Positions 8,689-41,033 of a DNA stretch of 48,643 bases are shown here, piece by piece. The DNA lies in NCBI GenBank assembly GCA_964651635.1, contig CAZYWT010000002.1, positions 1 to 48,643 of the forward strand. The letters are read 5' to 3'. The notes under the pieces are model-generated. The model searched no databases, was not told where the DNA came from, and saw nothing but the letters and a program-made list of their open reading frames with translations. How positions within the stretch are numbered: position 1 is the stretch's first letter; the number at the start of each line of letters is the position of its first letter. A program made the translations under genes and the position numbers. The DNA comes from an uncultured Candidatus Saccharibacteria bacterium. GTDB lineage: Bacteria > Patescibacteriota > Minisyncoccia > Minisyncoccales > CG1-02-41-26.

Positions 8689-8692
8689 TTTT

Positions 8693-20557: not shown

Positions 20558-20697
20558 AATAATTTTCTTAATAATTCATTGTCTCCCTATAAGTAATATA
20601 TTGCAAACTATCCGCCAAATCAAGCCCAAAAAGAATCCTGTGGAATATATGGGGAAAAGTTGTTGAAATGGGTCGGGCGACAAGATAACCAATACTT

Positions 20698-20916: not shown

Positions 20917-20969
20917 GCTAATAGTTGACTAATAGATAGGAAGGTATTAGTATAAGTACAAATTCATAT

Positions 20970-21653: not shown

Positions 21654-21671
21654 AAAATAAAGTTAAAAAAT

Positions 21672-22527: not shown

Positions 22528-22980
22528 GTGTTGGATAAAAAAGAACAAATAAAAAAAGAAATAGAATATTTTTTTACTAAAATGAGTTTAAGCGAGACGC
22601 CTTGTAATTTTAATATAGAAAGGGAAAAAGTTTGCTTTGAAATAAAAACAGAAAACCCCAGAACATTGATAGGAAAAAGAGGCGAAGTTATTTCTAACAT
22701 TCAATTTATTTTAGGAAAAATAATACAAAAAAAAATGAAGCAAAGATTATTTATTGACTTTGATGTAAATGGATATAAAAAGAAAAAAGAACAATATCTT
22801 AAAGAATTGGCTCGCGACTACGCCCAAGAAGTTTCTTTTACCAAAAAAATTAAAACCCTTCCCTCTTTATCTTCTTACGAAAGGAGAATAATCCATCTTG
22901 CTCTCCAAAATAAAAACGGAGTGAAAACAGAGAGCCGCGGACAAGAGCCGAACAGAAAAATTATAATAAAACCTGTTTAA
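22528..22980 (+). CDS. jag: Jag/KhpB-type RNA-binding protein (KH + R3H)
   Basis: The KH region reads LIGKRGEVISNIQFILGKI and the R3H region reads LSSYERRIIHLALQNKNGVKTESRGQEPNRKIII. The start is uncertain. I chose GTG at 22528 because the upstream TTG-initiated extension runs through the repeat element. Confidence 0.75.
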   Translation: MLDKKEQIKKEIEYFFTKMSLSETPCNFNIEREKVCFEIKTENPRTLIGKRGEVISNIQFILGKIIQKKMKQRLFIDFDVNGYKKKKEQYLKELARDYAQEVSFTKKIKTLPSLSSYERRIIHLALQNKNGVKTESRGQEPNRKIIIKPV

Positions 22981-24761
22981 TAAATTTGCGGGACAACTAA
23001 AAACGCTCTTACAGATGGCGAGCCCAAAAATGAAATGCGGGAGAGAATAGAGCAATTTCCTATTTTATCATCGGTTAAATTGTAATCGCTCCTTTCAAAA
23101 ACGGAAGTGCATCTCCCCGTTCCTTTGCTACTCCACTCATCTATTGGATTTTGGGCTAAAAGCAGAAAACAATCTCCAATTAATTCCACCGACCTAATTT
23201 GTTCGTCCAAAAAGTTTATTCTCTTTGTCTCCGCCACCCCGTCGGGACTTTGTCGCCTTACTGCTGTTTCTCCCGGAATATTTACGGGGGTTAAATAAGA
23301 GAGTTGTAGAGATTCTTCGGGTAGCCAAATATTCGCATAATCCGCGTCTCCCTCGTCCAACTCTTTCGCTTCCGGTCGGTATATCAAGCATTCTCCCTTT
23401 AAGTCCTGTCTTGTGCAAAACTTTATTTCTTGGCAGGTGGACAAGGGTTGGTTGGAGATAAGATTTACCATAACCGAACTTATATTGTCCACGCTGCCGT
23501 AATCGTCCCCGTCCTTTATGTTTGTGAAGGTGTTCTTGTCGGGCAGAAAATCCCAATCTTCCACATTCCCCACCTCTTCCTTCACTCTCCTTTTTATTTC
23601 TCTTTCCTTCTCCCCAAAAAACAATCTGGCGTTCCCCGTAAAATCCCCCTTTTCAAATAAAACAGCGAAAAAGTCGTAAATTTCATCTAAATTGTTTATT
23701 TTTATGCGAGCAATTTTATTATTGTAGTTTTGGTAATACCCATCTTTTTCTATAAGCAAAGAATTCTCGTCTAATTTTCCGGCCCTCATAGAGAGATGGT
23801 CGGCGTCTTCTTCTTCCGTGTAAAAATGAACTCCGTTTCCAATATCCACCCTAATGGCGGAAAGCGGGGGATACTCCACCTCATTGGCCATTTTATAGTA
23901 ATCTTGTCCTTTACCGCCGGGCATGTAGAGCCGTTCTATCTCGTCATCAGGGAACTCTTTAGTAAAAGTTATATCAACAAACCAATTGTCTGCCGTAGTG
24001 CTTATTGAATGCGAATGTCCATTCTCGTCTATATATTTCTCTCCAGTTACTATAATCGGGTCGCCTTTATAATATTTTTTCGGGTAAAAATAGAAAAGAT
24101 AGTTGTCAAACACTCCTTCATCATTTTTTCTAAGTCCCAATCTTCGCAGCGAGGCAATCTTAAAACCAACCCGCGTTACAACGCAATCTGCCGAGTTGGA
24201 CGGCGAAACATCACCCTCGCATTCTTTGGCGTAGAATTTCCCGTCTCCCAAGGCGCGGGAGAAATCTTTTATCCGCCCGGAGATAGTAAACAATTTATCG
24301 CTCGCTTCTTTCATTTGTTCCACATCTTCATCAGACACCCCCCTCGTCTTGTCGTCGTCGGCTAAAACGGGAGCGTCATCTCTTACTATTGTGGGGGCTT
24401 TTTCTTTTATTTCAATTAAGGTGAGTTGGGGGTTGACAAGATATAGGATTAAATAAGAACCCAAAAGAATCGCCAATCCTAAAAATCCGTTTCCTATATC
24501 CGTTGTGGCTTTTCCTCTTTTTGTTGGGTTGCCGGCCGAAGTAATATACCCAACCCCCGATTTTATAAGAACTCCAAAAACGACAATAGCGCCCAAAATA
24601 ATAGCCCATTCCGTAAAGTATTTAACCATATTTCCAAGAGAACTATTGCCATGGAATTCTACCCCTCCCCCCGGCAAGACGGGATAAACTTGAGCGCTCA
24701 TCATAAGGGGAATTATTACCCCTATAGTTATTAAAACCAATAAACTTATTTTTATTTTCAT
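22977..24761 (-). CDS. T4SS pilin-module (VirB2/TrbC-like) fused to a ~470-aa extracellular domain
   Basis: It has a signal peptide (MKIKISLLVLITIGVIIPLMMSAQV) and two TM helices. The loop and tail read ITSAGNPTKRGKATTDIGNGFLGLAILLGSYLILYLVNPQ. The motif LGSYLIL-LVNPQ is shared with 30940-35979. The C-terminal part contains Cys and an FxxxxFxG motif. Confidence 0.6.
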   Translation of the reverse strand: MKIKISLLVLITIGVIIPLMMSAQVYPVLPGGGVEFHGNSSLGNMVKYFTEWAIILGAIVVFGVLIKSGVGYITSAGNPTKRGKATTDIGNGFLGLAILLGSYLILYLVNPQLTLIEIKEKAPTIVRDDAPVLADDDKTRGVSDEDVEQMKEASDKLFTISGRIKDFSRALGDGKFYAKECEGDVSPSNSADCVVTRVGFKIASLRRLGLRKNDEGVFDNYLFYFYPKKYYKGDPIIVTGEKYIDENGHSHSISTTADNWFVDITFTKEFPDDEIERLYMPGGKGQDYYKMANEVEYPPLSAIRVDIGNGVHFYTEEEDADHLSMRAGKLDENSLLIEKDGYYQNYNNKIARIKINNLDEIYDFFAVLFEKGDFTGNARLFFGEKEREIKRRVKEEVGNVEDWDFLPDKNTFTNIKDGDDYGSVDNISSVMVNLISNQPLSTCQEIKFCTRQDLKGECLIYRPEAKELDEGDADYANIWLPEESLQLSYLTPVNIPGETAVRRQSPDGVAETKRINFLDEQIRSVELIGDCFLLLAQNPIDEWSSKGTGRCTSVFERSDYNLTDDKIGNCSILSRISFLGSPSVRAFLVVPQIY

Positions 24762-24778
24762 ATACTTATTTTATGTTT

Positions 24779-25858
24779 TTATTGATAAATTTCAGGGTTG
24801 ATACTAAAATTATGGCAGCAAGCGTAATTATTAACGCTTCCTCCGCAAAACCAGTCCAAACATTCTGAGTAGGTTTTCCCGTGGCATAAACAGGCGGCGC
24901 ATTCTCCATGGAAAATCCCGTTTTCACAAGCGTCCTCGCACATGGTAAATCTTATATAATTTATTTTTGCCAACGGGGTGGCTGTTCCCGGATTAAACCT
25001 ACTTTCATTGCTTAAACATTCCACACATTCTTCCGTTGGCTCTTTGGCGCACTCGTTTCTACATTCATAAGAATAAATTCTTGGCGAATAATCTCCCCTC
25101 AAAAACGCTTTTCCGCAGACAACCGGCATTTTTATTATATTCTCTTCCGCTCCTTTCTCTAATTTTTCTATTTCTTTTTCATTTAAGACGCAGTTTTTGC
25201 TAACAAGAGACGGCTGGAGCCAACTTCTGGCGAGATTGAGCAATCTTCTGCTCTCTTCCGGTTTTGTGATTTTATCTCCCGCCGTTTCTCCTTGTTTTAT
25301 TAAATCAACCCTTACGGGAACGGTCTTATTTTCTAAAACATCTCTCACCGCTTCTCTGGCTCCTTTTATCCTATTGTAAAATCCTCTTAATTCTTCCACG
25401 CTTTCGGTTAAATCAAAACAGGGTTCTCCCATACATTCCTCTGGCTGACAATTAGGAAGCTTCATTTCTATCGGCAGAGGACCGCTAAAAAAGAAATCAA
25501 TATTAATGCGAGCTGTTAGTCCCTTATCAACTACTCTCGCCTGACAAAGAGAAAAATCGCAAATCGGCGATTCCGTCGGCTCCGTCTCTGTTTCTCCTTT
25601 TCTTGTCAGGGATTTTATTATTTCTTGAATGTATTCCGCGCCGCCCGCAACGCTTTCATGCATATCTTTAACCCTATCTATAAGAGAGCCCAAAAGTTCT
25701 TTTGTTTTTTTAATTGCAAGCCCGGTTGGTATCGGCTCGTCGCAAACAATTGCTTGGGCGTTTGCTCCAAAAGCGGAACTCAAAAGTCCCATTGTTATTA
25801 AAACAAGAACAGCTATTTTTAATTTATTTTTTCCATTCATATATTTATAATAAACCAA
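24779..25858 (-). CDS. Secreted cysteine-rich protein, unknown function
   Basis: A signal peptide KLKIAVLVLITMGLLSSAFGANAQA is present; the likelier start is the Met at 25840. The C-terminal third is packed with Cys clusters (ECRNEC, ECVECL, MCEDACENGIFHGECAACLCHG, WFCGG, YACCHNF). Confidence 0.7.
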   Translation of the reverse strand: MVYYKYMNGKNKLKIAVLVLITMGLLSSAFGANAQAIVCDEPIPTGLAIKKTKELLGSLIDRVKDMHESVAGGAEYIQEIIKSLTRKGETETEPTESPICDFSLCQARVVDKGLTARINIDFFFSGPLPIEMKLPNCQPEECMGEPCFDLTESVEELRGFYNRIKGAREAVRDVLENKTVPVRVDLIKQGETAGDKITKPEESRRLLNLARSWLQPSLVSKNCVLNEKEIEKLEKGAEENIIKMPVVCGKAFLRGDYSPRIYSYECRNECAKEPTEECVECLSNESRFNPGTATPLAKINYIRFTMCEDACENGIFHGECAACLCHGKTYSECLDWFCGGSVNNYACCHNFSINPEIYQ

Positions 25859-25876
25859 TTTTAACCTATTGCCAAA

Positions 25877-28800
25877 TTATCTTTTGGCGCATTTAACCTT
25901 AACAAATCCGTCTATATTTGCGTCTTCGCAAGTTAAGGCAAACGATTTCTCCCCTTGTCCTTCCAAGTCCTTTACCCCCGGAAGTTCTATTTGGCAAGAC
26001 GATTCTTTCCCCTCCAATTGATAATTTTTTGTATAAAAGTTTACATCTAACGAGTAGTTTTGTCCGCTGTAATTAACTTCGCAAACATTTTCTTCGCAAA
26101 AAACTTCCAATCCCGACGGGGCCTCGGGGCATTTTGTTTGAATATCTATCCATTCCCTATAATTCCATCTCTCGCAATCCAAAGAACAAAAATAGGGAAG
26201 AGAAGATATTGTGTAGGTCGCTCTTTCTCCCTCTTCTTTGTCGCATTTTACAGAATAAGATTTTTTAGAGCAATTTATCGCCAACTCGCCTTTTTCTATT
26301 TTTGTTTGGCAGTTTCCCGGGATAGTGGAATCTTCTTCTATTATTTCACAAGTGAGAGCCCCCGTATAAGTTATTATTTCTTCGTTGGCGTCTTGTCTTT
26401 CCGGAGGAGATATTTTATCCTCCAAATTTTGAGCCATTTTTTTCATCGGGTGTCTTAATATATAAACTAAATAACAATAAGGGCTGCTGAGCGGCTCAAC
26501 CGTGAGGGGCATATTAGAAATACAAAAAGGATACTTGCACAAACTTTGCCCGCAAAGGCAATTTTGGCTGGCAAAATGAACCGCCGTGGCAAGAGCCCAA
26601 ACGGCTTGCGCTTTTCTCTTTATTTTTTCTCCCTCATCCTTCAAAGATTTTATAGAATTATATTTTACAGGATAGATGTTAAATATATCGCGCAGTTTCA
26701 ACGCTCCTATTTTTATATCAAAATCTTTAACCCCTCTTCGGATTATATCTATTTGAGTTAAATTACTCCTTAAAACAGAAAAGTTAGACTCTATAATGGA
26801 GAACAAATTACCCACATCCGGGCAAACGGGACCGCCTCTGGGCGTTGTTATATCATTGCTTCCGGAAGCGGGAAGAGCGACGCAATCCAATGGTTGGAAG
26901 CTTAAACCTTCGCTATCCTCGTCTTTTTTGGCTCCTTCGGAAAGTTTTTCGGGGAGTTCTTTGAGCATTTTGATTAAAATCTGAGCATTCTCATAAGCTG
27001 TTTTGGCGTCGCTTATAGATGTTTCTATTCCGCCCATAAACAAAGAATAGGACCTAATTCCTAAAAGAATAGAGTAAATTGACATAACTCTGTTTAAGGG
27101 CTGTCTAATGTTAGTGTTTTCGAGGTTGCAAAAGAATTTTAATCTTTCAAGAGAGGCGGCGCTTTCTTCATCCCCGGAGAAAATATCTTTTTCTTGTCGC
27201 CAATTGTCGCCCCAGCCCAACCCCTCTCCTCTTATATGTTCAAGATGAAGGGCGATATCCTTACAAAGAGAAGGGTCTTGGGAGTGGAGGCAGTTTTCCT
27301 TCCAGGCCTCTTTTACGGCCACTATCTTGTCGCATTGCTCTTTTGCTCCCGCAAGTCCCGTCCACCCCTCGCAACTTTCTTTAAGTTCCATTATCTCTTC
27401 CTCTTCAAAAGGGCAAACATCCGACAAATAATCAGCTCTTTGGGTACAAGCGCTATAAAACGAGCGCTCGCTACCGCCCATATAAGTCATATTCCCCTCA
27501 CTAACGGCGCCGTCGCACACTTTAGAACTCCAAAAATGGACGGGGTCCTCACCCTGCTCTAAGTGGTAGGGGGCCTCCGGGTCGCATATTCCTCTAATTC
27601 TTTCTCCCAACCCCTCGTTTTCTGTTAAAAATGGTAAAAGTCGCTCCCCTGCCCATCTTAAATTGTTATTCTTATCAAGTTCTTTTACTCTTCTCTCGGC
27701 TTCCACAAGGGTTCTCTCCAGCGCTTCCACCCTTGAGCAAAGTTCCTCGTCTAATTTTTTGCTTCGCTTGTTATATTCAGGATAGATTTCCTCGTTACAT
27801 TTTTGAAGAGTTTCGCCGGGGTTGCTGCTCATCAAGACGGGGTCTATCGCTTGGCAACTCACAGCCATTTTATTGTTGCCCAATATCTTTGCCTCTAAAT
27901 AAGGGATGTCGTTTTGTCTCGTTTTCTCCAATTTTTCTTGAACGGTCTTTCCATTTGTTTTTTCTTTTAGGAAGTAGTAATCGGGATTTTCCGAAAGATT
28001 TAGGAGAGACGAAAATCCCGCCTTTAGCCCATATTCTTTATTTTCCAAATTAAAATAGCCGTTAAAAAGACTGTTAATAGCGCTGTATTTTTCATCCAAA
28101 AAAGAAACGGGGCTTTCCATAAATTTATCAAACCCCTCTCCCTCTATCCCCGCTTCTTCCATCCCCGCGTTGCCGGCGAAAATATCGTCCATTTTTGTTA
28201 TTTTAACTTCCGGAATATCCAAGGAAGGGTTTAGTTCTTTGGTTTTTTTTGCCACCTCGCTAATTTTCTCGGATAATTTTTCCAAAGAGAAAATGGATTT
28301 AGTAATCCGCTCCAATTCTCTAAAATCTTTATTAAAATTGTCTATTTCAAAACATCTAATTCTTTCCAGAAATCCATTAGGAGAGGCGGGGCAGTTATAG
28401 GGGCCGGTCGCTTCCCCTAAATTTGCCAAGAATTTATCTATATCGTCGGCTAAATTTTCCTCCGTTTGGTTTGCCAACCTTCGGGCGGCTTGAATGGCGC
28501 TGTAAAGTTCTTGGGACTTTTCTTTGGTGGCAAGGAGCAACTTTATATATTCATAAGCGTTTATATCCTCTCCCCTTTCCCAGATATTTACAATTTCCCG
28601 TATTATTTCTTTTATTTTTTCCAACTTATCGTTCTTCAATTTTAAGATATTGGAAGAAGGATTAGAGAGTTTTTTAATATCGTTTTGATATTTATTTATT
28701 TTTTGAACGGATAAGGGAGAATTTATAAAATAATTCAAAATTGGATGGGCTATTTTTGCTTTACTCCATGTGAGGTCGCCGAGGTTGCTCACGGAAAAAT

Positions 28801-30937
28801 CGGGGTTTATATATTCCCAAGCCAATATCCCCCCCATTTCCCTTAAAAAATTTAGCTCCGGGAGAGAAATTTCCATAAAATCTCGTTTTTGATTCCAATC
28901 CTGATAAAAAAGTTCAGAATCAAACTGGCAGTTTTCCCCCGCTATTTCTTTGGCCTCTTCCGTTGTGGGAGCTACTGTTTCCCCCTCTTCCTCTCGCCAA
29001 AATATCTTTTTGCCCTCGTCGTCTATGGGCAGATTTTTTGTTTGAGCCAAAAACTCTTGGAAGGAATTAAATATGTTAAAAAAGTTGTCATTAAACCAAA
29101 AATTTTTATCCGTTTGGGAGTTTTGGTCCCAATTACGCTTGTGAAACCAAAAAAAAGCAAGTTTTCTTAAAAGTTCCTCATTAGACATTGGCATGCCCGC
29201 CTTCCACACGGAAAATTTTTCAAAGGAGTTAAGGGCGTTAATTAAACCAAAAATAGAATCAGCCCCTGCCTTGAAAGACGCCAACCAATTTTCTTGCGGG
29301 TTGTTGGGAATGGCGCAGGAATAGTTGCAAGTATATTCATTTTCACAAGAAACGGCAACCACTCCCTTTACTTGAGGGCACGACATATTGTATTCTTCCG
29401 CCGTTTTTGGCAAAGGAATAGCGCAAGTCCCTCCTCCGCCCGAAGGAGCGCCCCCGCAACTTAACTGATAAGAATTGGTAGTTCCCACTCTCGCGATTTT
29501 ACATTGGTTGGGGTTTTTTTCTATTTTTGCTCCGCACTCGCTCTCGCAACTTACCTTTAATTCTCTGGGAAGTTCTTTGCAGGAAGCGGACTCTTCAAAA
29601 TGGGGTTCCCACCATTTTATATCTCCCTTCATAGGGAAATCGGCGCAATCCACAACGCAAGAATAATTGGGCGCCGAAGGTTTGGTTATAGTATAGACAA
29701 GATTTTCTTCCGAGCAAGAGATGTTATAGCTCGAAGAACCCGAACAATTTATTTTTAACAAATTGTTTTCTATGTAATATAAGCAGTCTCCTTCCATCCC
29801 CGCGCTTCCGGTAGTTTGGCAAGAAAATCCCGTTTTTTGGCATTCAAAATCCGTCGGCTCGTTATGCGCGTCCGTTGCTTCTTCGGAAATAATAAATTTA
29901 GTCGCCGAACGCAATCTTTTAGCAAAGCCCGACGGGCTTTCAAAGTGAGCCAAAAACAACTGAATTGCTTGGTCCAACTTTTCTCTTTTTTCTTTGTCTC
30001 CCTGGGAGGAGCTCCCTTCCGTTTCATAAAGAAAACTTATCCATTCCACCCTTTGAAGAGTTTTCATCATTTTTTCCGTCTCTCCCTTTATATCTCCGGC
30101 CGCCGAGAGCGCTTCCGATTTTGCTTGGCTATATCGGGAAAGATTTTCGCCATATTCGCTAAATCCCAACTCTCCCTCCTGGCCGATGGTTTTTATCACC
30201 TTTCCCAAAGAATCGACAAATGTCTTAAAATATTGAACTTGCGCGAAAAGATCGTCTATAAAATCTATGGCGTAATTTACCGTGGATAAAATTTGGTCGT
30301 AAACCTTTTTTAATTCGTTAAGTTGCTTGGCGATATTTGCCACTTTTCTTAGAAAATTAGCGATTCCCGTGGGAGCCAGCCAGTCCGCGATGGTTAAGAT
30401 ATTTACCGTGTAGGTTACTTGCCCCAAAGTAAAGGGGCAGTGGCTTCGGCAATTTTTTAAGAAAGAGCATTCCGTTAGCGGGTCGGTTTTATTAAACATT
30501 TTTTTGGCAAAATAAGCGATATTGGAAGCGGCTCTTTGGATAGAAATAAATTCTCCGCAGGCGCGGGCAAGAGCGTATCTTTCTTCTCGGCTCATCTTTT
30601 CGGCTTCTTCGGGGGTGATAATTCGCAATTCGCACTTTTCGGGGATATAAGGAGCGACTAAAAGAGGAAACCCTTTTTCGTCGGTTGTATCTACTTGGCT
30701 TTCAGCTTCAAAAAAATTTTCTTTATTGAATGGGTGTTTGTCCGACACCCGCTTTATTTTCCAGTCACCAACGGCCAAATATCCATCCTCGGAAATATAA
30801 ATTTCCTCCGGGAGAGGAATTCCGTCCAAAATGTCTCCTATAAATTTCCAGATATTAAAAGCGTCGGCTCTTTGCGGGCTTATAAGAATAACAACCCCTA
30901 TAACCCCTATTAAAATTGTTTTTATCAGTTTTTTCAT
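25877..30937 (-). CDS. Giant (1686 aa) secreted cysteine-rich protein with a duplicated Cys-module
   Basis: A signal peptide MKKLIKTILIGVIGVVILISPQRADA is present and there is no further TM helix. Two homologous ~170-aa Cys modules lie at about nt 29300-29845 and 25880-26368. Long helical regions lie between them. Confidence 0.8.
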   Translation of the reverse strand: MKKLIKTILIGVIGVVILISPQRADAFNIWKFIGDILDGIPLPEEIYISEDGYLAVGDWKIKRVSDKHPFNKENFFEAESQVDTTDEKGFPLLVAPYIPEKCELRIITPEEAEKMSREERYALARACGEFISIQRAASNIAYFAKKMFNKTDPLTECSFLKNCRSHCPFTLGQVTYTVNILTIADWLAPTGIANFLRKVANIAKQLNELKKVYDQILSTVNYAIDFIDDLFAQVQYFKTFVDSLGKVIKTIGQEGELGFSEYGENLSRYSQAKSEALSAAGDIKGETEKMMKTLQRVEWISFLYETEGSSSQGDKEKREKLDQAIQLFLAHFESPSGFAKRLRSATKFIISEEATDAHNEPTDFECQKTGFSCQTTGSAGMEGDCLYYIENNLLKINCSGSSSYNISCSEENLVYTITKPSAPNYSCVVDCADFPMKGDIKWWEPHFEESASCKELPRELKVSCESECGAKIEKNPNQCKIARVGTTNSYQLSCGGAPSGGGGTCAIPLPKTAEEYNMSCPQVKGVVAVSCENEYTCNYSCAIPNNPQENWLASFKAGADSIFGLINALNSFEKFSVWKAGMPMSNEELLRKLAFFWFHKRNWDQNSQTDKNFWFNDNFFNIFNSFQEFLAQTKNLPIDDEGKKIFWREEEGETVAPTTEEAKEIAGENCQFDSELFYQDWNQKRDFMEISLPELNFLREMGGILAWEYINPDFSVSNLGDLTWSKAKIAHPILNYFINSPLSVQKINKYQNDIKKLSNPSSNILKLKNDKLEKIKEIIREIVNIWERGEDINAYEYIKLLLATKEKSQELYSAIQAARRLANQTEENLADDIDKFLANLGEATGPYNCPASPNGFLERIRCFEIDNFNKDFRELERITKSIFSLEKLSEKISEVAKKTKELNPSLDIPEVKITKMDDIFAGNAGMEEAGIEGEGFDKFMESPVSFLDEKYSAINSLFNGYFNLENKEYGLKAGFSSLLNLSENPDYYFLKEKTNGKTVQEKLEKTRQNDIPYLEAKILGNNKMAVSCQAIDPVLMSSNPGETLQKCNEEIYPEYNKRSKKLDEELCSRVEALERTLVEAERRVKELDKNNNLRWAGERLLPFLTENEGLGERIRGICDPEAPYHLEQGEDPVHFWSSKVCDGAVSEGNMTYMGGSERSFYSACTQRADYLSDVCPFEEEEIMELKESCEGWTGLAGAKEQCDKIVAVKEAWKENCLHSQDPSLCKDIALHLEHIRGEGLGWGDNWRQEKDIFSGDEESAASLERLKFFCNLENTNIRQPLNRVMSIYSILLGIRSYSLFMGGIETSISDAKTAYENAQILIKMLKELPEKLSEGAKKDEDSEGLSFQPLDCVALPASGSNDITTPRGGPVCPDVGNLFSIIESNFSVLRSNLTQIDIIRRGVKDFDIKIGALKLRDIFNIYPVKYNSIKSLKDEGEKIKRKAQAVWALATAVHFASQNCLCGQSLCKYPFCISNMPLTVEPLSSPYCYLVYILRHPMKKMAQNLEDKISPPERQDANEEIITYTGALTCEIIEEDSTIPGNCQTKIEKGELAINCSKKSYSVKCDKEEGERATYTISSLPYFCSLDCERWNYREWIDIQTKCPEAPSGLEVFCEENVCEVNYSGQNYSLDVNFYTKNYQLEGKESSCQIELPGVKDLEGQGEKSFALTCEDANIDGFVKVKCAKR

Positions 30938-30939
30938 AA

Positions 30940-33900: not shown

Positions 33901-35979
33901 TCGCGAAAAATCTTCCCAACATTTTTCCGGCTCCGAGAATTCTTTAAAGATATTAGGGTTGTTTTCCTTATAATCCCCGATAAGGTCAAGGGCTGGCTTG
34001 GTAATTTGGTAAGCGAGTTCCCAAACCATATTTTCTATTTGCTTGTCTATCCTCTCTTTTAGGTCTTTTAATTGGGCTTCCAAAAATTTATCTGTTTTTT
34101 CTAAGGGGATTAAAGCAAAATCGGGCAGAACTTGAGAGACCTTCTTTTTTAAGTTTTCTTTCAAAAAGGGAATTTGCTTGTCCAAAGATTTAGTGAGAGC
34201 GCCTTTCATCGCTATATCTAAAACATCCACTAAATCGTTTTCTATAATACTCTTTAATTCTTTAGAAAAATTAAAGTCCAAAACGGAACTTTTCAACGCT
34301 TTGGATATTTTCTCCGGCAGTTGCTCCATAATTGGAGCGGTGAGAGTGTTTGCCACCAAATTAGACAAAAAATCGGGCGGTATTTCTTTTTTCTCGCAGT
34401 TTTCTTTAACGCATTCCTCGTATTTTTCCTCGTCCTCGCTTTTCTCCGGGCATCCTTCTTCCATCTCTTCTTTTCTATAAGAAGCTAAACATTTTTCCAC
34501 ATAATATTTATCTGATTTTTGAACAAGGTCTTTGTTGAGCCGCTCTCTAAAAGATTGAGCGTATTCTTCCGAATTCATCTGAAAAACATCCAGTAAATAA
34601 TTATCTATCCCTTCATCTAAGGCTTTTTGGGTAAGGTTGGCGTAATAAGAAGTGTCTATCGCAAACTCCCCTTCTCCAAAAGCGTCCTCCAAACATTCCT
34701 CCGCCACTCGCTCTATCTCTTCAACTCCCACCCGCAAAAGAACGCTCACAAGGTTAATGGCTAAACTTTCCTCCATTGTTTCTTGGTTCTCCCCTTTTTG
34801 GCTTAAAGGGAAATACTTTCCGCTCAAGGGAGCGTATATGGTAAAATCATCGGGGGTTCCCGCTTCAAAGAGAGTTTGTTCTTTTTGGGAAGGATGTTTT
34901 TGAATGTCTATATCTTCGTATTGATTTCTCCAATTTTCCAACTCTCTATAATAATCAGTTTGAGTATATACATTTATTAAATTTGTGTCTAAAAATTCAG
35001 ACACTTTTAACTTTAGCGTTTTCTCTAAAAATCCGATTTCCTCGCTTGATATTTTGTAATTTAGCACCTTTAATCCCCCCCACTCCCCTATTAAATTTTT
35101 TCTTTTCTCTCTCGCTAGTTCCAGGTTGCAATTTTCCGAGTTTCCGCATCCCTCTCCTTCGGCGTCGCACTGATTTTCGCAAGTTTCTTCCTCGTTGCTC
35201 ATTAGCGCTTTTCCCTCGGCGCAAACTCCCTTGCTCTCTTTCGTTGCTATGTGGGATTGCGACATTCCGCAACCGCAATTTTCTAAAATAGCGTTGATTT
35301 CTTCGGAAATTTCGATTACGCTCAACATCCTGCCTTCCGCTTCCAAAAAAGGGATTTCGGCTCTAAAAAATTCGCTTCTCTCATCGCCGCTCTCGGTGAG
35401 GGCTTTTTCTACATATTCTTTTACTGCTTCATCGTTCATGCTTGCGAGCGTCATTTTTTTATCTAAATAGTCCAACGCTTCATCTATTTGCTCTCCGCCG
35501 GAAGAGTAAGCCAAAATTGCCTTCTCGCCCGATGACGCTATCTCGGGCAAAACGGGGGGCGGGATTTTTTTGAACTCTGTTTGTAAAACTAAAATCTGCG
35601 GGTTTACAAGAGACAGGATTAAATAAGAGCCCAAAACAATCACAAATCCCAAAAGAGCGTTTTGCATTCTTTGGTTGGCGATATTTCGCAGAGTTGGTTT
35701 GACGCCGGAGAGAAGATAAAGAACCCCGCCGGCTATAAACACGGCTAACACTATTCCGGTGGCTATAAAATAGAAAAGAATTAAAAAGTAGCTTCCGTAG
35801 GCAGACAACCTTTCATCCACCTTTAACGCGCCATCGCTTATTTTTTCCTCTATTGTGTTGGGGGTATCTACCCCGGGTAATTTAGGATAAGAAACATTCA
35901 AAGCGTTGGCGGAAAATATAGGCAAAAATAAGGCGAAAATTAAAAAAATAAGAAATAAAATATTTAGTTTTTTAGGCAT
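30940..35979 (-). CDS. Giant (1679 aa) protein: N-terminal VirB2/TrbC-type pilin module fused to a ~1540-aa Cys-rich extension
   Basis: It has a signal peptide (...LPIFSANA) and TM1 (YFLILFYFIATGIVLAVFIAGGVLYLL). The loop is SGVKPTLRNIANQRMQN and TM2 is ALLGFVIVLGSYLILSLVNPQ. The C-terminal tail is rich in CC/CxxC (CCNLGAALVC, FCCYDESCNIC, LCCQGSYYNEETDQCC). Confidence 0.7.
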   Translation of the reverse strand: MPKKLNILFLIFLIFALFLPIFSANALNVSYPKLPGVDTPNTIEEKISDGALKVDERLSAYGSYFLILFYFIATGIVLAVFIAGGVLYLLSGVKPTLRNIANQRMQNALLGFVIVLGSYLILSLVNPQILVLQTEFKKIPPPVLPEIASSGEKAILAYSSGGEQIDEALDYLDKKMTLASMNDEAVKEYVEKALTESGDERSEFFRAEIPFLEAEGRMLSVIEISEEINAILENCGCGMSQSHIATKESKGVCAEGKALMSNEEETCENQCDAEGEGCGNSENCNLELAREKRKNLIGEWGGLKVLNYKISSEEIGFLEKTLKLKVSEFLDTNLINVYTQTDYYRELENWRNQYEDIDIQKHPSQKEQTLFEAGTPDDFTIYAPLSGKYFPLSQKGENQETMEESLAINLVSVLLRVGVEEIERVAEECLEDAFGEGEFAIDTSYYANLTQKALDEGIDNYLLDVFQMNSEEYAQSFRERLNKDLVQKSDKYYVEKCLASYRKEEMEEGCPEKSEDEEKYEECVKENCEKKEIPPDFLSNLVANTLTAPIMEQLPEKISKALKSSVLDFNFSKELKSIIENDLVDVLDIAMKGALTKSLDKQIPFLKENLKKKVSQVLPDFALIPLEKTDKFLEAQLKDLKERIDKQIENMVWELAYQITKPALDLIGDYKENNPNIFKEFSEPEKCWEDFSRGYFYNYTNERCYKATPREISDFTSGRGIANALVRSKKDGDVGAFESDFTQEALCRGAGYCWDQIGGEVCKSCKNLNLGGLAPTRENLARWGKGAVEFLVNFGEEFMVALLRTAAHTLTKYAQVWVEDSILKPFAPYLFQLSTFQEEIHNFLNSSVREALPAQISAYLGSSVEQILSDICAKKEAGGSYTIYNEKIEVSEEVGKAACGIDRELHQSLLDQLSENGKFGEKVATALNTEIMKLFDQVFKNADIDKHLNKTVAQLIWPELNLSPEVMRKLLKATPKELICGEISFIDYDCKEWSFDLTAGLLPYPSDPAGEKGYCYFLNYACQNPLKGWDRAQGLILSDFINTYCQQLEIKKEKLCSEQGISPCVLRDLTLSEEKKDLIDRGEDACAALIENSAAYTIFNDQIEHNFGDIEKKDKEKSQEIYLWLFATFTDKRVQGEIQKLALDRGMGREEMLHIATQADAMEEGQIKKLERGLQSFTAWFSSGGTVEEALTTPCLGAVEGLTGSPCEGSNMLAKNIYWLLGSGACSLVERTYLAEEKEGDVGENLKNLFITCRILTQTLEESLGIEKRLINYIKDPYNTIFSLMWTKLENYERPEPLNNLLDALFRGKISSLLMRVKAKDVGGPGWSEEQKQEFAKQANKLGEALSKDPISYLLNGKSLIYMIFKKMGKENWLQKSMDVSKWKEIQEVLAKTPTDIAAHYLTDPLNKEWALFRSPIDYIAETKIPELNNPYIDTIGKAAGITKFVYEIYGKWEDIKDSVNEAVDSVQGTIRSSLDTAFIEYPTRGVNWLIQSLGMGATDEIGDDIADRLAGKCKDATPEEKNNESCQGEKEIYNKTTKQCCNLGAALVCKDRCREIETSESCDIEKGEERDERDDGVFCCYDESCNICRQTYAVARAKNAEPKAKCEREGDERKEKTTEDEEEMVLCCQGSYYNEETDQCCVDLLTCISNKLTDFLKMLTLTIKTGLPINSNSPIFSD

Positions 35980-36391
35980 ATTTTTTCATTGCGTTTTTCA
36001 TTCCTATGGTCCATCCGAACCAAAGGGAACCCACAATGGGCAAGGGCTCCAGCAAAAAACTCCAGCCCTTTAAGGGGACTATAAATCTTTGCGTTTCTAT
36101 GGAAGCGACAATGGTTAAAGACAAAAATGCCACAAGGTCGAGAAAAAAAGACAGGATTGTTCCAACTACCCCTACATAGGGTATTAGTTGGATTATTTCG
36201 GCGGGGATTTCCAGCAAATCAAATATAAAAGCGAGGGTTATGGCTATTACGGGTCCATCTTCTCTTAATCGCGACGATTTGTCTTTTTTTGCCAAACTGC
36301 TCGCTTCTTTCCAACGCTCTTTTCCCTTGCCATAGAGTTCTTTTCCTTTTTGTTTGGCTTTTTGGTAAACTTGGCTTAATCCGGGACTCAT
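35972..36391 (-). CDS. Small membrane protein of the T4SS-like operon, unknown function
   Basis: 139 aa with a basic N-terminus followed by 3 predicted TM helices. It overlaps both neighbours (4 nt and 8 nt). Confidence 0.6.
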   Translation of the reverse strand: MSPGLSQVYQKAKQKGKELYGKGKERWKEASSLAKKDKSSRLREDGPVIAITLAFIFDLLEIPAEIIQLIPYVGVVGTILSFFLDLVAFLSLTIVASIETQRFIVPLKGWSFLLEPLPIVGSLWFGWTIGMKNAMKKYA

Positions 36392-38178
36392 AATTTTTTC
36401 TTTTTCTTTTTAATTTTTTGAATTTCTTCCGGGGAAGAAGTTATAATCTGGTCTTCGGTGTAAGAGGCCGTTACTTTTAAGGCGACTCTCTTTCGGCCGG
36501 CGATAAATATCCCTTCTCCCACATCGGATTCCAAAAGCAAGTATTTTTCTCTTTCCGTTAAATTAAAAGTTTTTTTGGCCGTGTCTATTGTGGCCGGCGA
36601 TTGTTTTAAGAGAATTTGGAGAGAGGAGTTTGTTATAATCGGCTTTCCGTAATCAGACCTCATAAAATCGGATATGTCTTGGGTTATAGTGGAGACCCCC
36701 AACCAGTATTTTCTTGACCTTTTACAAATCCCAAAAAGAAAGGACGCTCCGTCTTCCGTTTTCATAACCCACCAGGCCTCGTCCACTAAAAGTATTCTTT
36801 TTTTCAATTCTTTTCTGATGCTGTTCCAAATATAACGAAGCACCATATACATAGCCATCGGGCGAAGTTCATCTTCCATATCTCTAATGCCAAAAACCAC
36901 TAAACTTTTGTCCATAGATATGTTGGTGGGGTTGTTAAAAAAATTGGCGTAACTGCCGGTAGTAAATTTTCCCACTCTTGAAACAAGAGATTCAGCCCCC
37001 TCCATAGTGGAGAGAACACTTTCAAAATCCGACATAAGGGGCGTTTTTTCTTCCCAAGTTTCAGGGCTTGTTTGGGGAGTTATGTCTTTGGCCGCGTAAG
37101 TTTCGGTAATTGCCCTGTCTATAATAGAGTCCTCTTCCGAGGTTAGTCCCCCCAGCATAATCCGAAAAAGTCCCACCAGGTTTATTATATTGGTTCTCAA
37201 AACATCTTCGGCGTCCTCGTCTTCGGTTGGTTTGGGCACATCAAAAGGATTAAGATGATTGTCGGAAGTGAGCGATATCTTAAAATAAGAGCCGCCCACG
37301 GCGGCGGCGAGCCACTGGTATTCGTTTTCCGGGTCCATTATAATTCCGTCAACTCCTTGCATTAAATAGCGGAGCATTTCCAGTTTTGCCATATAGCTTT
37401 TTCCCGAACCTGCCTTGGCAAAAATACAAGTGTTAGCGTTCTCCAGCGTAAATCTGTCAAAAAGAACCAAAGAATTATTGTGTCTGTTTACTCCGTAGAG
37501 AATTCCCTCGTTGGCGCTTAAATCCGGGGAAACAAAAGGGAAAATACTGGAAAGGGGCTCTGTGTTCATGGGAGTGTGAACGCCTATTTTGTCTAACCCG
37601 TAAGGAGCGGTGGAGACAAAACCCTGCTCCGATTTTAAGAGAGTTGGTTTTAAGTAGATAAGACGGGACTCAAAAATAGAACGAAGTTTTGTTTCCAACT
37701 CTCGCAGATGCGCTTTGCTGTCGCCGTATATAGTGATGAAAACTCCTAATTGAAAGACCCTCTCTTCGGCTCTTTGGAGCGAATCCCGCAAATTTTCTAT
37801 ATCTTGATAAGCCGTTTCCAAAGTCGGGTCTCTAATTAGCCCCTTTTCTGTTCTTTCCATAAGTTCCGCTTGAATGTTGGTGAGTTTTTTTCGCAGTTGT
37901 CTTAAAATTTCTCCCGATTCCACGGGGTGAATGTGAAAAGCAATGTCCAGCGGGTAATTTATATTTATAGCCGGCGATATCCAGCCGGTGGTTAAATATC
38001 GGGGGTAAGAAAAAACAAAAAATGTTTTCAAAAACTTCTCTCCCAGTTTTATGTAATCCTGCGATATTTCAACCGAAGACGGAGCGATAATGTCGCCTAC
38101 CGATATCGCTCTTTCCCTGTAATCAATTCCCTCTATTGTTCCCTTGTCTTTTTTTGTAAAAGGAAGGTTAATATTCAT
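36388..38178 (-). CDS. virB4: VirB4/TraC-class T4SS ATPase
   Basis: 596 aa. Walker A is IFAKAGSGKSY and Walker B is RILLVDEAWWVM. The N-terminal domain carries YPRYLTTGWISPAI, and the C-terminal part carries QSPATID/ERE. Confidence 0.85.
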   Translation of the reverse strand: MNINLPFTKKDKGTIEGIDYRERAISVGDIIAPSSVEISQDYIKLGEKFLKTFFVFSYPRYLTTGWISPAININYPLDIAFHIHPVESGEILRQLRKKLTNIQAELMERTEKGLIRDPTLETAYQDIENLRDSLQRAEERVFQLGVFITIYGDSKAHLRELETKLRSIFESRLIYLKPTLLKSEQGFVSTAPYGLDKIGVHTPMNTEPLSSIFPFVSPDLSANEGILYGVNRHNNSLVLFDRFTLENANTCIFAKAGSGKSYMAKLEMLRYLMQGVDGIIMDPENEYQWLAAAVGGSYFKISLTSDNHLNPFDVPKPTEDEDAEDVLRTNIINLVGLFRIMLGGLTSEEDSIIDRAITETYAAKDITPQTSPETWEEKTPLMSDFESVLSTMEGAESLVSRVGKFTTGSYANFFNNPTNISMDKSLVVFGIRDMEDELRPMAMYMVLRYIWNSIRKELKKRILLVDEAWWVMKTEDGASFLFGICKRSRKYWLGVSTITQDISDFMRSDYGKPIITNSSLQILLKQSPATIDTAKKTFNLTEREKYLLLESDVGEGIFIAGRKRVALKVTASYTEDQIITSSPEEIQKIKKKKKKL

Positions 38179-38181
38179 AAT

Positions 38182-38844
38182 TTAATCCAAAAGTTCGGGC
38201 AATATCTCCGGATAATACCCAAATTCCGATTGTCTTGGGTGGTGGAGTGCCCAAAAAAGTTCAATGAGTTCCGGGGTGGTGAGAGGGACGGCGTTTAATC
38301 CGCATCGCCGCAGGCCTATGGCGGCATATTCCATCCTTTGCCAAAGTTGGTCGCGAGCTCTTTGAAAATTTTCTTTGCCTAATCCAAAGTATTTATCTTC
38401 TCCGCCTCCTCCCTTGAAAATGTTTTGGAGAAGTCCTCCGCTGACCCCTATTGTTTCATTTAGGGTAAAAGGGACTACCACGAAAAACTCTTTTTTCATA
38501 ATCGTTCCTTTTTTAATCAACTTTTCCACAAATTTTCTATAGCCGCTTATTTGAACTTTCAAAAGTTCCGATTTTTGCTTTTCTTCCAACTCTTTTAGTT
38601 TGTCAAAATAGCCGGTGATATTTAAGCGGCGGGATTGAACTATTATTTGAGTGGAAAAATCAAGAGAGTTTAAGAAACTTTGGAATTGATAAGTAGTGGC
38701 TTTTTGCTCATCTTCGGATTTTAGGTCAAAATTCACGGAAGAGGTGAGTAAAACTCCTCGCAGGGACTTGTTTTTTAGAATTAGAGTTCCGTCTTTTATC
38801 CCTTCAAATTTTAAGAAATTTTGGGCGGGGTTGTTACTAAACAT
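38182..38844 (-). CDS. Stand-alone protein resembling the non-ATPase N-terminal region of Gram-positive-type VirB4 proteins
   Basis: 220 aa with no P-loop. The pattern FEGIKDGTLILKNKSLRGVLLTSSVNFDLKSEDEQKATTYQFQSFLNSLDFSTQIIVQSRRLNI matches my recollection of PrgJ/Orf16-type VirB4 N-termini. This is inference. Confidence 0.4.
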   Translation of the reverse strand: MFSNNPAQNFLKFEGIKDGTLILKNKSLRGVLLTSSVNFDLKSEDEQKATTYQFQSFLNSLDFSTQIIVQSRRLNITGYFDKLKELEEKQKSELLKVQISGYRKFVEKLIKKGTIMKKEFFVVVPFTLNETIGVSGGLLQNIFKGGGGEDKYFGLGKENFQRARDQLWQRMEYAAIGLRRCGLNAVPLTTPELIELFWALHHPRQSEFGYYPEILPELLD

Positions 38845-38847
38845 AAA

Positions 38848-39264
38848 TTATTGTTTGTTTTGTTTCCACTCTAATTGAGAGGAAAGTTCTTTTATGCGAC
38901 TGCCGGGAGAAATTTTTAAGGGTTCTCGTTCTTTTTCTTCCTCTTTGGGTTTTTGATATTTTATTCTCAAAGAGTGAGGCGGAACATCTTTCTTTTCCCA
39001 AAAATATCTTTTGGCGGAAGTAAAAAAACTAAAATATTGAGCGATAAGTTGAGGTATGGTGTAGCCCTCTACTCGGACAAAAAGAAAAAGCAAGACAACC
39101 GTAACGGTGGCGAAAAAGATAACATAAAAAGCGGTCGGCGGGACTATATAATATAGCCCAAAAAGGACACCTCCCACTATCCCCAAAATAATTAACTGGC
39201 GAAAAGTGAGAAGATTAAAAAACTTTGTTTGATGCTCTAAGAATTTTGGAACTTTATATCGCAT
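38848..39264 (-). CDS. PrgI-family (VirB3-like) T4SS membrane protein
   Basis: The N-terminus MRYKVPKFLEHQTKFFNLLTFRQLIILGIVGG is followed by two TM helices. It lies directly upstream of the VirB4 genes, which is the canonical VirB3-VirB4 order. Confidence 0.7.
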   Translation of the reverse strand: MRYKVPKFLEHQTKFFNLLTFRQLIILGIVGGVLFGLYYIVPPTAFYVIFFATVTVVLLFLFVRVEGYTIPQLIAQYFSFFTSAKRYFWEKKDVPPHSLRIKYQKPKEEEKEREPLKISPGSRIKELSSQLEWKQNKQ

Positions 39265-39342
39265 TGTTATATTTTATCACGAAACAATTAAAATGGGCAA
39301 GTGGCCGGTAAGTGGTGGGTAGGTGGCGAACAAGTGGCGGGC
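39265..39342 (-). promoter_or_regulatory. Putative promoter (TTGCCC-N18-TGATAAAAT) abutting four 11-bp-phased AAGTGG repeats
   Basis: The minus-strand extended -10 element is at 39271-39279 and the -35 at 39295-39300. Only 6 nt separate the -10 from the ATG. On the plus strand, AAGTGG/AGGTGG occurs at 39299, 39310, 39321 and 39332. Confidence 0.4.
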
Positions 39343-39353
39343 AAAAACAAAAC

Positions 39354-39390
39354 GGGCGGTTGTCCCGATGTTATATCGGGACAACCGCCC
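39354..39390 (-). terminator. Intrinsic terminator (16-bp perfect stem) after the 349-aa gene
   Basis: The hairpin is GGGCGGTTGTCCCGAT-gttat-ATCGGGACAACCGCCC. On the minus strand it is followed by GTTTTGTTTTT, and on the plus strand by TTTATTT, so it may act in both directions. Confidence 0.8.
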
Positions 39391-39453
39391 TTTATTTCTA
39401 AAAGAGGCGCAATAAAAAAGCCCGGGTAGTTAATGTCCCGGGCTATAGGGCGG

Positions 39454-40503
39454 TTATTTGGATTTTTTCTTAAAAATTTTGAAAAAACCCTTGGCAAGAT
39501 TGCCAATACAACCGCCAATTGTGGTTCCCGCTTTCATCTCCTTCATCTCCTTCATCTCCGTATTCAGTTTTCTGTTTTTGCGTTCCAGCCGCTTCCTTTT
39601 CTGGGCAAGTTTTTCCGCTTCCATTTCCATTTCCACAATCCGAGACCTTAATTGGTCTCTTTTTCTCCGCGCCTTTCGCAGGGCGGAGGCCGCCTCTCTT
39701 CTGCGGCTGGCGGAAATTTTTTCCGCTTCCGCTTCCGCTCCTTGAACGAGCTCCAAAGAGCGTTCCAATACGAACCGTATTGTCCGAGCTGATTCGCTCG
39801 GACTCGGCCCGCTTCCGCTTCCATCTCCGCTTTCTCCACTTTCGTCTCCATCTTCTAACGCTTTTTCTTTCTTTTTTTCTTTTTTTTCTTTCTTTTTTTC
39901 TTTCTTTTTTTCTTTTTTTTCTTTCTTTTTTTCTTTTTTTTCTTTTTTTTTTTTTTCTTTTTCCTTGTTCCATTCCCCATCCCCCTTCGGAAATGGCGAC
40001 CATTTCTTCCATGTGGTCGTCTTCCGGTAGAATCTCGGCCACTGTTTTTTAACATAAGAATAACAGAGCCAGTAACCTACGGGAATCCCCGCGTAGAGTC
40101 CAAATACAGCGAAAAAATAATCCGCAGTTAGGACATCCGCCGAAACCCACACGGCGAGAATGGCCGCTACCGCGGTCCTGGCGCCGACCCACTCTACAAT
40201 TTCTCGAATGACTCGGCCAGGTCCCCTCCCTGTCCCGCCGAATATGTTCACGAATCCTTCGTGAACAGCGAGGGGAATGGCGAGGACTGTTGCCAGCCCC
40301 GCCAGAATATGCCTACCCCACTTCGTGTTATTTAACACGAGCAGGGAGACGAGGATAGCGACAACGATAGTAAATAATCGTATGTCGCTATCCAACAGAA
40401 TGATTCCGGGTACTGTTCTAAATAAATAGAAATAATAGTACCCGGAACTTGCCAGTGTTGCCGTAAGCAATAGCCCCGCCACGACATTTACAAGTTTCCT
40501 CAT
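39454..40503 (-). CDS. Polytopic membrane protein with poly-(K/E) tract and coiled-coil tail; GC-rich cassette
   Basis: 349 aa. The N-terminal ~170 aa form about 5 TM helices encoded by visibly GC-rich DNA. They are followed by KEKEKKKKEKKEKKKEKKEKKKEKKKEKKEKKKEK, a Gly/Ser/Asp linker, a coiled coil and the tail GTTIGGCIGNLAKGFFKIF. Confidence 0.7.
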   Translation of the reverse strand: MRKLVNVVAGLLLTATLASSGYYYFYLFRTVPGIILLDSDIRLFTIVVAILVSLLVLNNTKWGRHILAGLATVLAIPLAVHEGFVNIFGGTGRGPGRVIREIVEWVGARTAVAAILAVWVSADVLTADYFFAVFGLYAGIPVGYWLCYSYVKKQWPRFYRKTTTWKKWSPFPKGDGEWNKEKEKKKKEKKEKKKEKKEKKKEKKKEKKEKKKEKALEDGDESGESGDGSGSGPSPSESARTIRFVLERSLELVQGAEAEAEKISASRRREAASALRKARRKRDQLRSRIVEMEMEAEKLAQKRKRLERKNRKLNTEMKEMKEMKAGTTIGGCIGNLAKGFFKIFKKKSK

Positions 40504-40590
40504 TTTTTAACCTCCTTTTTTAATGAACTTTCTTACCTATATTATACCACAAACACACTCTATTTGTCAATGCCGCCATTGCCAAAAAAT

Positions 40591-40644
40591 CAGAGACCCG
40601 ACCTCTGGCAAACCTCTGGCAAATTGCCAGAGGTCGGGTCTCTG
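40591..40644 (-). terminator. Palindromic-repeat pair acting as a probable intrinsic terminator after the 118-aa gene
   Basis: The perfect 21-bp arms are CAGAGACCCGACCTCTGGCAA and TTGCCAGAGGTCGGGTCTCTG, with a 12-nt loop. The minus strand continues with ATTTTTTGG. Confidence 0.7.
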
Positions 40645-40665
40645 GCGATCTTTAATAATTTAGAG

Positions 40666-41022
40666 TTAGTCGATTTTTTCTCGGTAAATATCGTTAAGTT
40701 TGGGAGGAGATTTTTTGCTCTTTTCTTCTTTCTCTCCCATTGTTTTTGCTCTGGGTATAAGTTTATTTTCCAATTCTTGGGCTATTTTTTCCGCTTTTTC
40801 CAGTGTTGTGTTTAGTTCCAATTTTATAGAGACCGGGAACTCTTCTTTGGATAAATCTCCTTTCCCCCTATAACTAACCAGTTCCGCTAAAATTTGGATG
40901 TTGGGCTTTCCCCCCTTTTTAACTTTGCGAAAAAACTCTTTATTATCCTCGCTTAATCCTTCCTTTTCTAAAATTTCCTCTATTATATCCGATGAATTTT
41001 CGGGAAATATTATTTCTGCCAT
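40666..41022 (-). CDS. Small acidic/charged cytoplasmic protein, unknown function
   Basis: 118 aa with no TM helix. It lies 11 nt downstream of the VirB6-like gene on the same strand. Confidence 0.6.
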   Translation of the reverse strand: MAEIIFPENSSDIIEEILEKEGLSEDNKEFFRKVKKGGKPNIQILAELVSYRGKGDLSKEEFPVSIKLELNTTLEKAEKIAQELENKLIPRAKTMGEKEEKSKKSPPKLNDIYREKID

Positions 41023-41033
41023 AATTTAATTTA

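Follow-up and report, generated by a model that had tools for sequence, protein, structure and literature searches.

The window analysed here, 48,643 nt in full, comprises positions 1 to 48,643 of contig CAZYWT010000002.1 of GenBank assembly GCA_964651635.1, from an uncultured Candidatus Saccharibacteria bacterium. Its minus strand holds, at exactly 25877..30937, an ATG-initiated open reading frame (ORF) for a 1686-aa protein plus stop, hereafter the target. This ORF lies in a cluster of type IV secretion system (T4SS) genes, a context which was not seen in an earlier note made from the letters of the sequence and which is the main clue to function. Along the minus strand, the genes follow each other as TrbL/VirB6, two small genes, PrgI/VirB3, a TrsD-like VirB4 N-domain, the VirB4 ATPase, a 139-aa gene, g1679, the target, g359 and g594 (Table 1). 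The intergenic gaps around the target measure 2, 18, and 17 nt, and a single operon with co-transcription of its genes is therefore implied.

The target is built, in this order, of a signal peptide, a conserved N-domain, a Cys-rich module (M1), a variable body, a conserved C-domain, and a second Cys-rich module (M2), with ~980 residues between M1 and M2. Residues 1-27 are the sole segment with a 19-residue Kyte-Doolittle hydropathy above 1.4, and the protein has no transmembrane (TM) segment, which bears out the cleavable signal peptide and the lack of a TM segment that had been noted earlier. The cleavage motif (ADA/F, the slash marking the cut) recurs as AxA/F in homologues, and the signal peptide region contains no lipobox Cys. 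Similarly, no LPXTG sorting signal was found in the target, whose C-terminus (...FVKVKCAKR) is devoid of a hydrophobic segment; the only LPxxG-like string, LPASG at aa 1355, lies inside the conserved C-domain. The target yielded neither a PF18895 (VirB2-like pilin) match nor a second hydrophobic segment. From these sequence features, it is predicted to be an exported, unanchored protein. Of its 56 Cys, 17 fall in M1 (aa 361-548) and 12 in M2 (aa 1521-1686). The earlier note had placed these modules at both ends of the protein; M1 is instead internal, behind a 335-aa N-domain, and M2 sits behind a 265-aa C-domain. The body, fast-evolving and of modest helix propensity, is matched by only four homologues and is 24% identical to that of the P0059 protein.

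M1, in the extent given to it by the earlier note (aa 365-543, nt 29309-29845), and M2 match each other in BLASTP with E=1e-7 and 28% identity counting gaps, and their local alignment contains 47 identical residues in 121 aligned columns. The Smith-Waterman score of the pair is 110, as compared with 35±6 (maximum 59-72) for composition-preserving shuffles, that is, z=11-13, whereas hhalign of 10 M1-type modules vs the 2 M2 modules returned 96% probability and E=4e-9. The cysteines of M2 are in register with those of M1 in 11 of 12 cases in the local alignment and in all 12 in a MAFFT alignment. As controls, five other Cys-rich segments (from g359, g1679, and the target itself) and the C-terminal region of g594 gave z<3 vs both M1 and M2, indicating that Cys richness alone is not the source of the match. 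Masking the Cys residues lowered z to about 1, a non-significant value, so that the similarity signal is essentially the cysteine framework; a full-length self-BLAST of the target with composition correction gave no off-diagonal match. At the DNA level, the modules share no extended identity, and no repeat longer than 41 nt occurs within 24700-36000, which therefore excludes the mis-assembly of repeats into a chimeric ORF that the earlier note had contemplated. Judged by these alignments, M1 and M2 are homologous modules with a conserved Cys framework, as had been read from the letters alone. A 21-nt direct repeat (26291-26311 / 29516-29536), with 86% identity between its copies, specifies C-x-x-KIEK once in M2 (C1543) and once in M1 (C468); it is probably a coincidence, since these two Cys are non-homologous in the module alignment.

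The relatives of the target escaped a word-index search, which retrieved the query alone with the full protein and two proteins with a C-domain profile, so that an exhaustive HMMER search (query aa 487-1686, counting representatives of 50%-identity clusters) was needed. Of the 51 representatives that it recovered, 41 scored E<1e-30, and almost all are 1200-2900 aa long. The C-domain (target aa 1256-1510) was matched in 51/51 representatives and the N-domain in 33; phmmer with the latter (aa ~70-350) likewise picked up, apart from the target, 32 homologues, the best at E 1e-61. The C-domain is recognised by the motif GGPVCP...NCTCGQSYCKxPLCISGxPLT...PYCYLVYILR, with invariant Cys, Gly, and Pro columns, and forms the end of the protein in most homologues. 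Where clusters are named at all, the name is 'hypothetical protein [Patescibacteria group bacterium]'. Searches of Pfam, NCBIfam, PHROGs, and PDB sequences with the target protein, the N- and C-domain profiles, or the modules alone returned nothing significant. The N-domain gave only sub-threshold coiled-coil matches to PDB sequences, and the matches of the target to TrbJ, tail proteins, tape-measure proteins, flagellin, and designed coiled coils were all below threshold as well, probably reflecting helical composition. On the strength of the shared domains, the target is assigned to an undescribed family of giant Patescibacteria proteins.

Two other origins were considered and rejected for this family: a phage source, with no relative in IMG/VR, and a diversity-generating retroelement target, with no template repeat matching the M2 region and no reverse transcriptase domain among 39 scanned ORFs (the window counts 64 of ≥100 aa). 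Sequences paired closely in one 90% cluster share 97-99.6% identity, and their differences form no hot-spot. In one locus (L030 6723-9444, NCBI GCA_012974985.1), the family gene consists of two adjacent ORFs (408 + 483 aa), while the same 90% cluster has a 1780-aa version, which suggests a frameshift, a pseudogene, or an assembly error. A gene for a 23S-rRNA intervening-sequence protein lies near it, and its tail has a SpaA/prealbumin-like domain.

At the position of M1, close homologues carry a Cys-rich insert that is hypervariable, its length ranging over 85-330 aa and its Cys count over 6-33, between conserved borders (D-x-SCP...C at its start and SCPxIxGxIxISCxxxCxISCxxPxNNWF at its end). 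A hidden Markov model (HMM) of the module matched this family alone, at the M1 position; sharing with the Cys-rich neighbours g359 and g1679 was ruled out by this HMM together with the z<3 of the controls. Behind the C-domain, a second M-type module was found only in the target and in P0059 (the L009 ORF, 1856 aa, present in JGI and ENA data), most of the ~50 members ending at the C-domain; the two-headed layout that had been put forward for the target is thus not the design of the family. A neighbour-joining tree of C-domains did not group them as sisters and placed tail-less members between them. The M2 of the target (T_M2) has its own M1 (T_M1) as best match (z 11.7; next 6.2), while that of P0059 (L9_M2) best matches P0016_M1 (z 8.4) and L9_M1 (z 7.8) and reaches only 4.7 vs T_M2. 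Because the two proteins are not sisters and their M2 best-match patterns differ, the simplest reading of these sequences is one of two separate origins, with an M1-type module as the source of the C-terminal copy in each lineage and, in the target, with its own M1 as that source. Gene conversion may also be involved.

Other members end in different tails. That of P0016 is short and Cys-rich, and that of P0045/P0053 contains a SpaA/prealbumin-like domain (PF17802, 24.2 bits vs a cutoff of 23.1), so that a SpaA/Cna-B-type domain of a distant homologue sits where the target has M2. Domains of this kind are typical of Gram-positive pilus and adhesin stalks. Domain matches such as these demonstrate that the C-terminal slot accepts domains of putative binding type. 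L014 (3-4985, plus strand) and P0010/P0058 have a tail of ~290 aa with a β-type domain and the Cys motif CxxCPxW[IF]C; the L014p tail partly duplicates an internal Cys motif (z=6.2), more weakly so in P0010/P0058 (z≈2.4), and by this similarity the L014 tail is a second apparent case in which an internal module has given rise to a terminal copy.

To M2 we applied AlphaFold2 with a module-only alignment of 12 module sequences. The resulting model is all-β, with a mean predicted local distance difference test score (pLDDT) of 67 and a predicted template modelling score (pTM) of 0.57. Module residues ~11-40 and ~121-166 reach pLDDT 85-95, and the centre (59-99), which is also the most variable part, stays below 50. 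The duplicated module is accordingly described here as a predicted β-rich, Cys-framed unit; the disulfide knot that had been suggested from the Cys spacing finds no support in an all-β model with a poorly predicted centre. Among Pfam profiles, a weak match of the module to THSD1 Ig-like (18.3 bits) is under the cutoff of 27. The C-domain model (17 homologues) is mostly helical and, at pLDDT 52, unreliable.

The genomic setting of the family was assessed by scanning JGI metagenome contigs with the C-domain profile, which yielded 22 loci. Wherever flanks are present, the order pilin giant, family gene, g359-like gene, and pilin-like gene is kept. A g1679-like pilin giant lies upstream in 5/5 loci (L009, L010, L015, L016, and L022), a g359-like gene follows immediately in 20/20 loci having downstream sequence, and 16 loci encode at least one g594-like pilin-domain protein further downstream. 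VirB4 is located upstream in L010 as in the window, TrbL is near in three loci, and several family-bearing contigs also hold dnaA. On the other hand, a VirB4-based scan of GTDB genomes delivered five loci of the candidate phyla radiation (CPR; L001-L005) with VirB4 of 43-58% identity, a core T4SS, and short pilins, and in these five neither the target nor g359 has a homologue. With the core T4SS present and the cassette absent there, the latter is accessory, not universal or core. The target thus belongs to a four-gene accessory cassette that occurs in a subset of CPR T4SS loci.

Table 1. Coordinates of the target domains and of the T4SS genes that surround them (positions in the window)
Feature	Position	Strand	Description
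Signal peptide, aa 1-26, MKKLIKTILIGVIGVVILISPQRADA/F	30860..30937	-	Only hydrophobic segment; signal peptidase I cut predicted at AxA
N-domain, aa 27-360	29858..30859	-	PExCELRI...AC...IQ.AA...YFAKKxFNxTDPLxxCxFLxNCxSxC, then helical/coiled-coil-like sequence
M1, aa 361-548, Cys framework C373-C531	29294..29857	-	Hypervariable Cys-rich slot; ends in SCPxxxGxxxVSC...CxxSCxxPxxNW
Body, aa 549-1255	27173..29293	-	Variable, acidic: 30% charged, net charge -37, 14 scattered Cys
C-domain, aa 1256-1520 (265 aa)	26378..27172	-	GGPVCP ... NC[TL]CGQSxCKxPxCISxxPLT...PYCYLVYILRxP
M2, aa 1521-1686, 12 Cys, C1530-C1683	25880..26377	-	Putative M1-type copy after acidic linker; lineage-specific
Core T4SS block	35972..43136	-	TrbL/VirB6 41034-43136, g118, g349, PrgI/VirB3 38848-39264, TrsD-like 38182-38844, VirB4 ATPase 36388-38178, g139; Pfam + NCBIfam
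g1679, 1679 aa	30940..35979	-	N-terminal VirB2-like pilin domain; stop 2 nt ahead of target start; PF18895 weak
g359, 359 aa	24779..25858	-	Secreted, Cys-rich; no Pfam/NCBIfam match
g594	22977..24761	-	Second VirB2-like pilin domain protein; PF18895 E=3e-4; weak match to Mbov_0395 pilin-like conjugal transfer family

The N-terminus of g1679 is paralogous to g594 (mutual E≈1e-12). In both, the pilin domain is fused to a very large extracellular region, an arrangement conserved in related loci, and g1679 also has a Cys-rich C-terminus. The g359-like protein of other loci is 536-795 aa long. VirB4 is split (36388-38844, minus strand), a 220-aa TrsD-like N-part with VirB4_plasma/TrsD matches preceding a 596-aa ATPase, which is consistent with the reported abundance of TrsD in Patescibacteria. 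Between TrbL and PrgI, the 349-aa g349 (39454-40503, minus strand) gave weak SpoIIIAH-like and YscL/V-ATPase-E-like matches (E 0.003-0.07), and might be a diverged VirB8 or a ring-building component.

The T4SSs of Patescibacteria have been described as MPF-FATA-like, with VirB2-like pilin arrays, located near dnaA, lacking a relaxase, and having 'no adhesins such as PrgB' (PMC12102498), and the cluster of the window agrees with this description. In Southlakia, the CPR T4SS, with its pilin genes and without relaxase or coupling protein, is essential for epibiotic growth (PMC10633639). Against this background, our preferred reading, to which we give a probability of about 0.5, is that the target is a Sec-exported accessory component of a CPR T4SS/pilus with host-recognising modules. 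It would serve, unanchored, a T4SS/pilus of Gram-positive type (MPF-FATA-like) in a Parcubacteria/Paceibacteria-like CPR bacterium. Upon cleavage of the signal peptide, its N- and C-domains would dock to the pilin-domain giants g1679 and g594 and/or to g359, thereby displaying a variable, disulfide-stabilised module that would recognise a structure of the host-cell surface. The C-terminus tolerates added domains in this family, and M2 would have been added here by copying of M1 within the same protein and later divergence, so that M1 and M2 could act as two related binding heads ~980 residues apart, with a gain in bivalency or avidity. From sequence and gene context we infer that the target lies at the surface, docks through its N- and C-domains, forms disulfide bonds, and binds the host. 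The binding or adhesin role raised in the earlier note fits the T4SS cluster, the hypervariable slot, and the SpaA-type homologue, and is to this extent plausible, not proven. More tentatively, and with some doubt on our part, the family could supply the missing subunit by which the Patescibacteria T4SS/pilus recognises its host. It would be a modular 'tip' that plugs into the pilin-fused giants by its N- and C-domains and whose hypervariable module slot and open C-terminal slot hold exchangeable specificity cassettes; repeated, independent copying of M to the C-terminus (in the target and in P0059) would generate bivalent epibiont-host tethers, and the module type would predict host range.

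Several observations weigh against host recognition by displayed modules. The target has neither LPXTG nor TM segment as an anchor to account for its retention. Body and modules are equally variable (24% and 22-27% identity to P0059, respectively), and variability therefore does not single out the modules as a recognition surface. An M-type C-terminal module in only two members means that bivalency is not general in the family, and the C-domain tree that separates those two is a neighbour-joining tree without support values. With the M1/M2 match non-significant once Cys are masked, the modules may share a scaffold only, not a ligand. Finally, the comparison with lectin or adhesin folds proposed earlier assigned no fold: Foldseek of the partly confident M2 model vs PDB and BFVD reached at best E 0.06-0.09 with TM<0.2, and hence found no relative.

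The target could instead be structural, a scaffold or sheath for the T4SS/pilus that takes no part in recognition. The Cys modules would then serve as cross-linking nodes of a giant extracellular assembly, through intermolecular disulfides or mechanically, and M2 would be a second cross-link point. Its closely spaced gene neighbours, two giants with a pilin domain and a further Cys-rich protein, fit this proposal, as do the odd Cys count of M1 (17) and the 56 Cys of the protein, which leave room for intermolecular bonds, the confinement of nearly all M1/M2 similarity to the Cys framework, and the sub-threshold likeness to coiled-coil, flagellin-D0, and tape-measure-like proteins. A purely structural node should be conserved, yet close homologues differ widely in the slot, with lengths of 85-330 aa and 6-33 Cys, the C-terminal slot also takes unrelated β domains including a SpaA-like one, and related CPR T4SS loci do without the cassette; we consider a scaffold unlikely. 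Somewhat lower still we rank a secreted effector or toxin, which would be released or passed to the T4SS after Sec export, bind a host receptor through its modules, and act on or insert into the envelope with its C-domain. There is precedent in pertussis toxin, which is handed to its T4SS after Sec export. The missing anchor, the conserved hydrophobic tail of the C-domain (PYCYLVYILR), variable C-terminal add-ons reminiscent of polymorphic toxins, and a CPR T4SS that has no relaxase or coupling protein and 'may instead export proteins' (PMC10633639) all accord with such a role. Yet neither an enzymatic nor a toxin domain emerged from Pfam, NCBIfam, PADLOC-independent, and PDB searches, a g359-like gene always comes next and no immunity-like small gene is seen, the variable C-terminal pieces look like non-catalytic β-sandwich or Cys-rich domains of binding type, and conserved domains occupy both termini, unlike in polymorphic toxins.

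That the target is a general surface-coat or envelope protein which merely adjoins T4SS genes appears improbable. It is large, acidic, Cys-rich, and equipped with a Sec signal, and compact CPR genomes can place unrelated genes side by side; on the contrary, 22 loci drawn from different samples all keep it in the same order with pilin-domain genes, the short gaps (2-18 nt) indicate co-transcription, and VirB4 lies upstream both here and in L010. It is barely credible, in turn, that the M1/M2 duplication is an artefact, whether a chance alignment of Cys-rich segments or a chimeric, mis-assembled ORF. The Cys-masked score, which does not rise above shuffles, and the empty composition-corrected self-BLAST would speak for chance, but the unmasked z of 11-13 as opposed to z<3 for other Cys-rich segments, the hhalign probability of 96%, 12 M2 Cys in register, and the lack of a DNA repeat do not, and the same two-module architecture recurs in the independent P0059/L009, on contigs from two sources.

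Returning to the preferred reading of an accessory T4SS/pilus component, the closest functional analogy would be offered by the minor pilins VirB5/TraC/TrbJ, pilus-tip adhesins of Gram-negative T4SSs, which like the target are Sec-exported, unanchored T4SS accessories encoded beside pilin genes. VirB5-type proteins are elongated with an appended globular part for target-cell contact, but they are only ~220 aa long and lack Cys-rich modules, and the host system of the target is of the monoderm MPF-FATA type. No Pfam match of the target to VirB5/TrbJ models was obtained, and the TIGR02780 TrbJ model scored 14.7 bits vs a cutoff of 100.55, over 51 body residues. Also a T4SS-associated giant is CagY of the Helicobacter pylori cag T4SS, which reportedly has duplicated modules with conserved Cys whose rearrangement tunes the interaction with the host. 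CagY is a membrane-anchored VirB10 homologue, and its repeats are α-helical, in tandem, and nearly identical in DNA. The target shares with it the duplicated Cys-bearing modules but differs in having two diverged copies of predicted β type ~980 aa apart, with no DNA repeat.

PrgB/Asc10-type adhesins of Gram-positive conjugative T4SSs (MPF-FATA), which the target would resemble in our reading, are large, Sec-dependent surface proteins from a T4SS operon and establish cell-cell contact. The target has, unlike PrgB, no LPXTG signal, C-terminal TM segment, or PrgB/adhesin Pfam domain, and the published survey reports no PrgB homologues in Patescibacteria. By phylogeny, it is MPF-FATA to which the T4SS of CPR bacteria comes nearest (PMC12102498). 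Saccharibacteria T4SS loci contain arrays of VirB2-like pilins (the 'Sec-secreted array'), which are essential in Southlakia (PMC10633639). The target differs from these in lacking a pilin domain, being one of the uncharacterised 'non-pilin' genes, and the pilin domains next to it are parts of giant fusion proteins (594 and 1679 aa).

In Saccharibacteria, the one lineage tested, growth on host cells depends on the T4SS (PMC10633639), and the phylum-wide survey found no adhesin (PMC12102498). The cassette, and a family with two variable slots, would provide candidate host-specificity determinants in mostly uncultured organisms. If the target were only a structural strut, it would represent an orphan family with an internal duplication, of modest interest; the internal duplication by itself is a modest feature.

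The window is chromosomal DNA and encodes dnaA, dnaN, rnpA, yidC, jag, polA, ruvABC-type genes, and nusA, among others. Its DnaA shares 65-67% identity with proteins from metagenome-assembled genomes of Nealsonbacteria and the 'Patescibacteria group'. At ~18000-22000, GC content falls to 28% around dnaN/dnaA, and the GC skew reverses near 8 kb and 18-22 kb; together with the gene order rnpA-yidC-jag-dnaA-dnaN, this looks like a replication origin region. The T4SS cluster starts ~2.5 kb from this putative origin, in keeping with reports on Patescibacteria. At its other side, a LysM + peptidase M23 protein (44304-45350, plus strand), which could be an analogue of the VirB1-type wall hydrolase, adjoins the cluster, with the ksgA rRNA dimethylase gene (43166-43972, minus strand) between it and TrbL. 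Further away, the plus strand at 7711-9985 holds an unannotatable 325-aa ORF followed by a secretion ATPase of type II/IV (T2SSE, E=3e-113); the latter is probably a type IV pilus motor and thus part of a second surface machine in the window, and the plus strand at 11173-11838 encodes a 221-aa protein with a lamin-tail domain (LTD, PF00932, E=5e-12).

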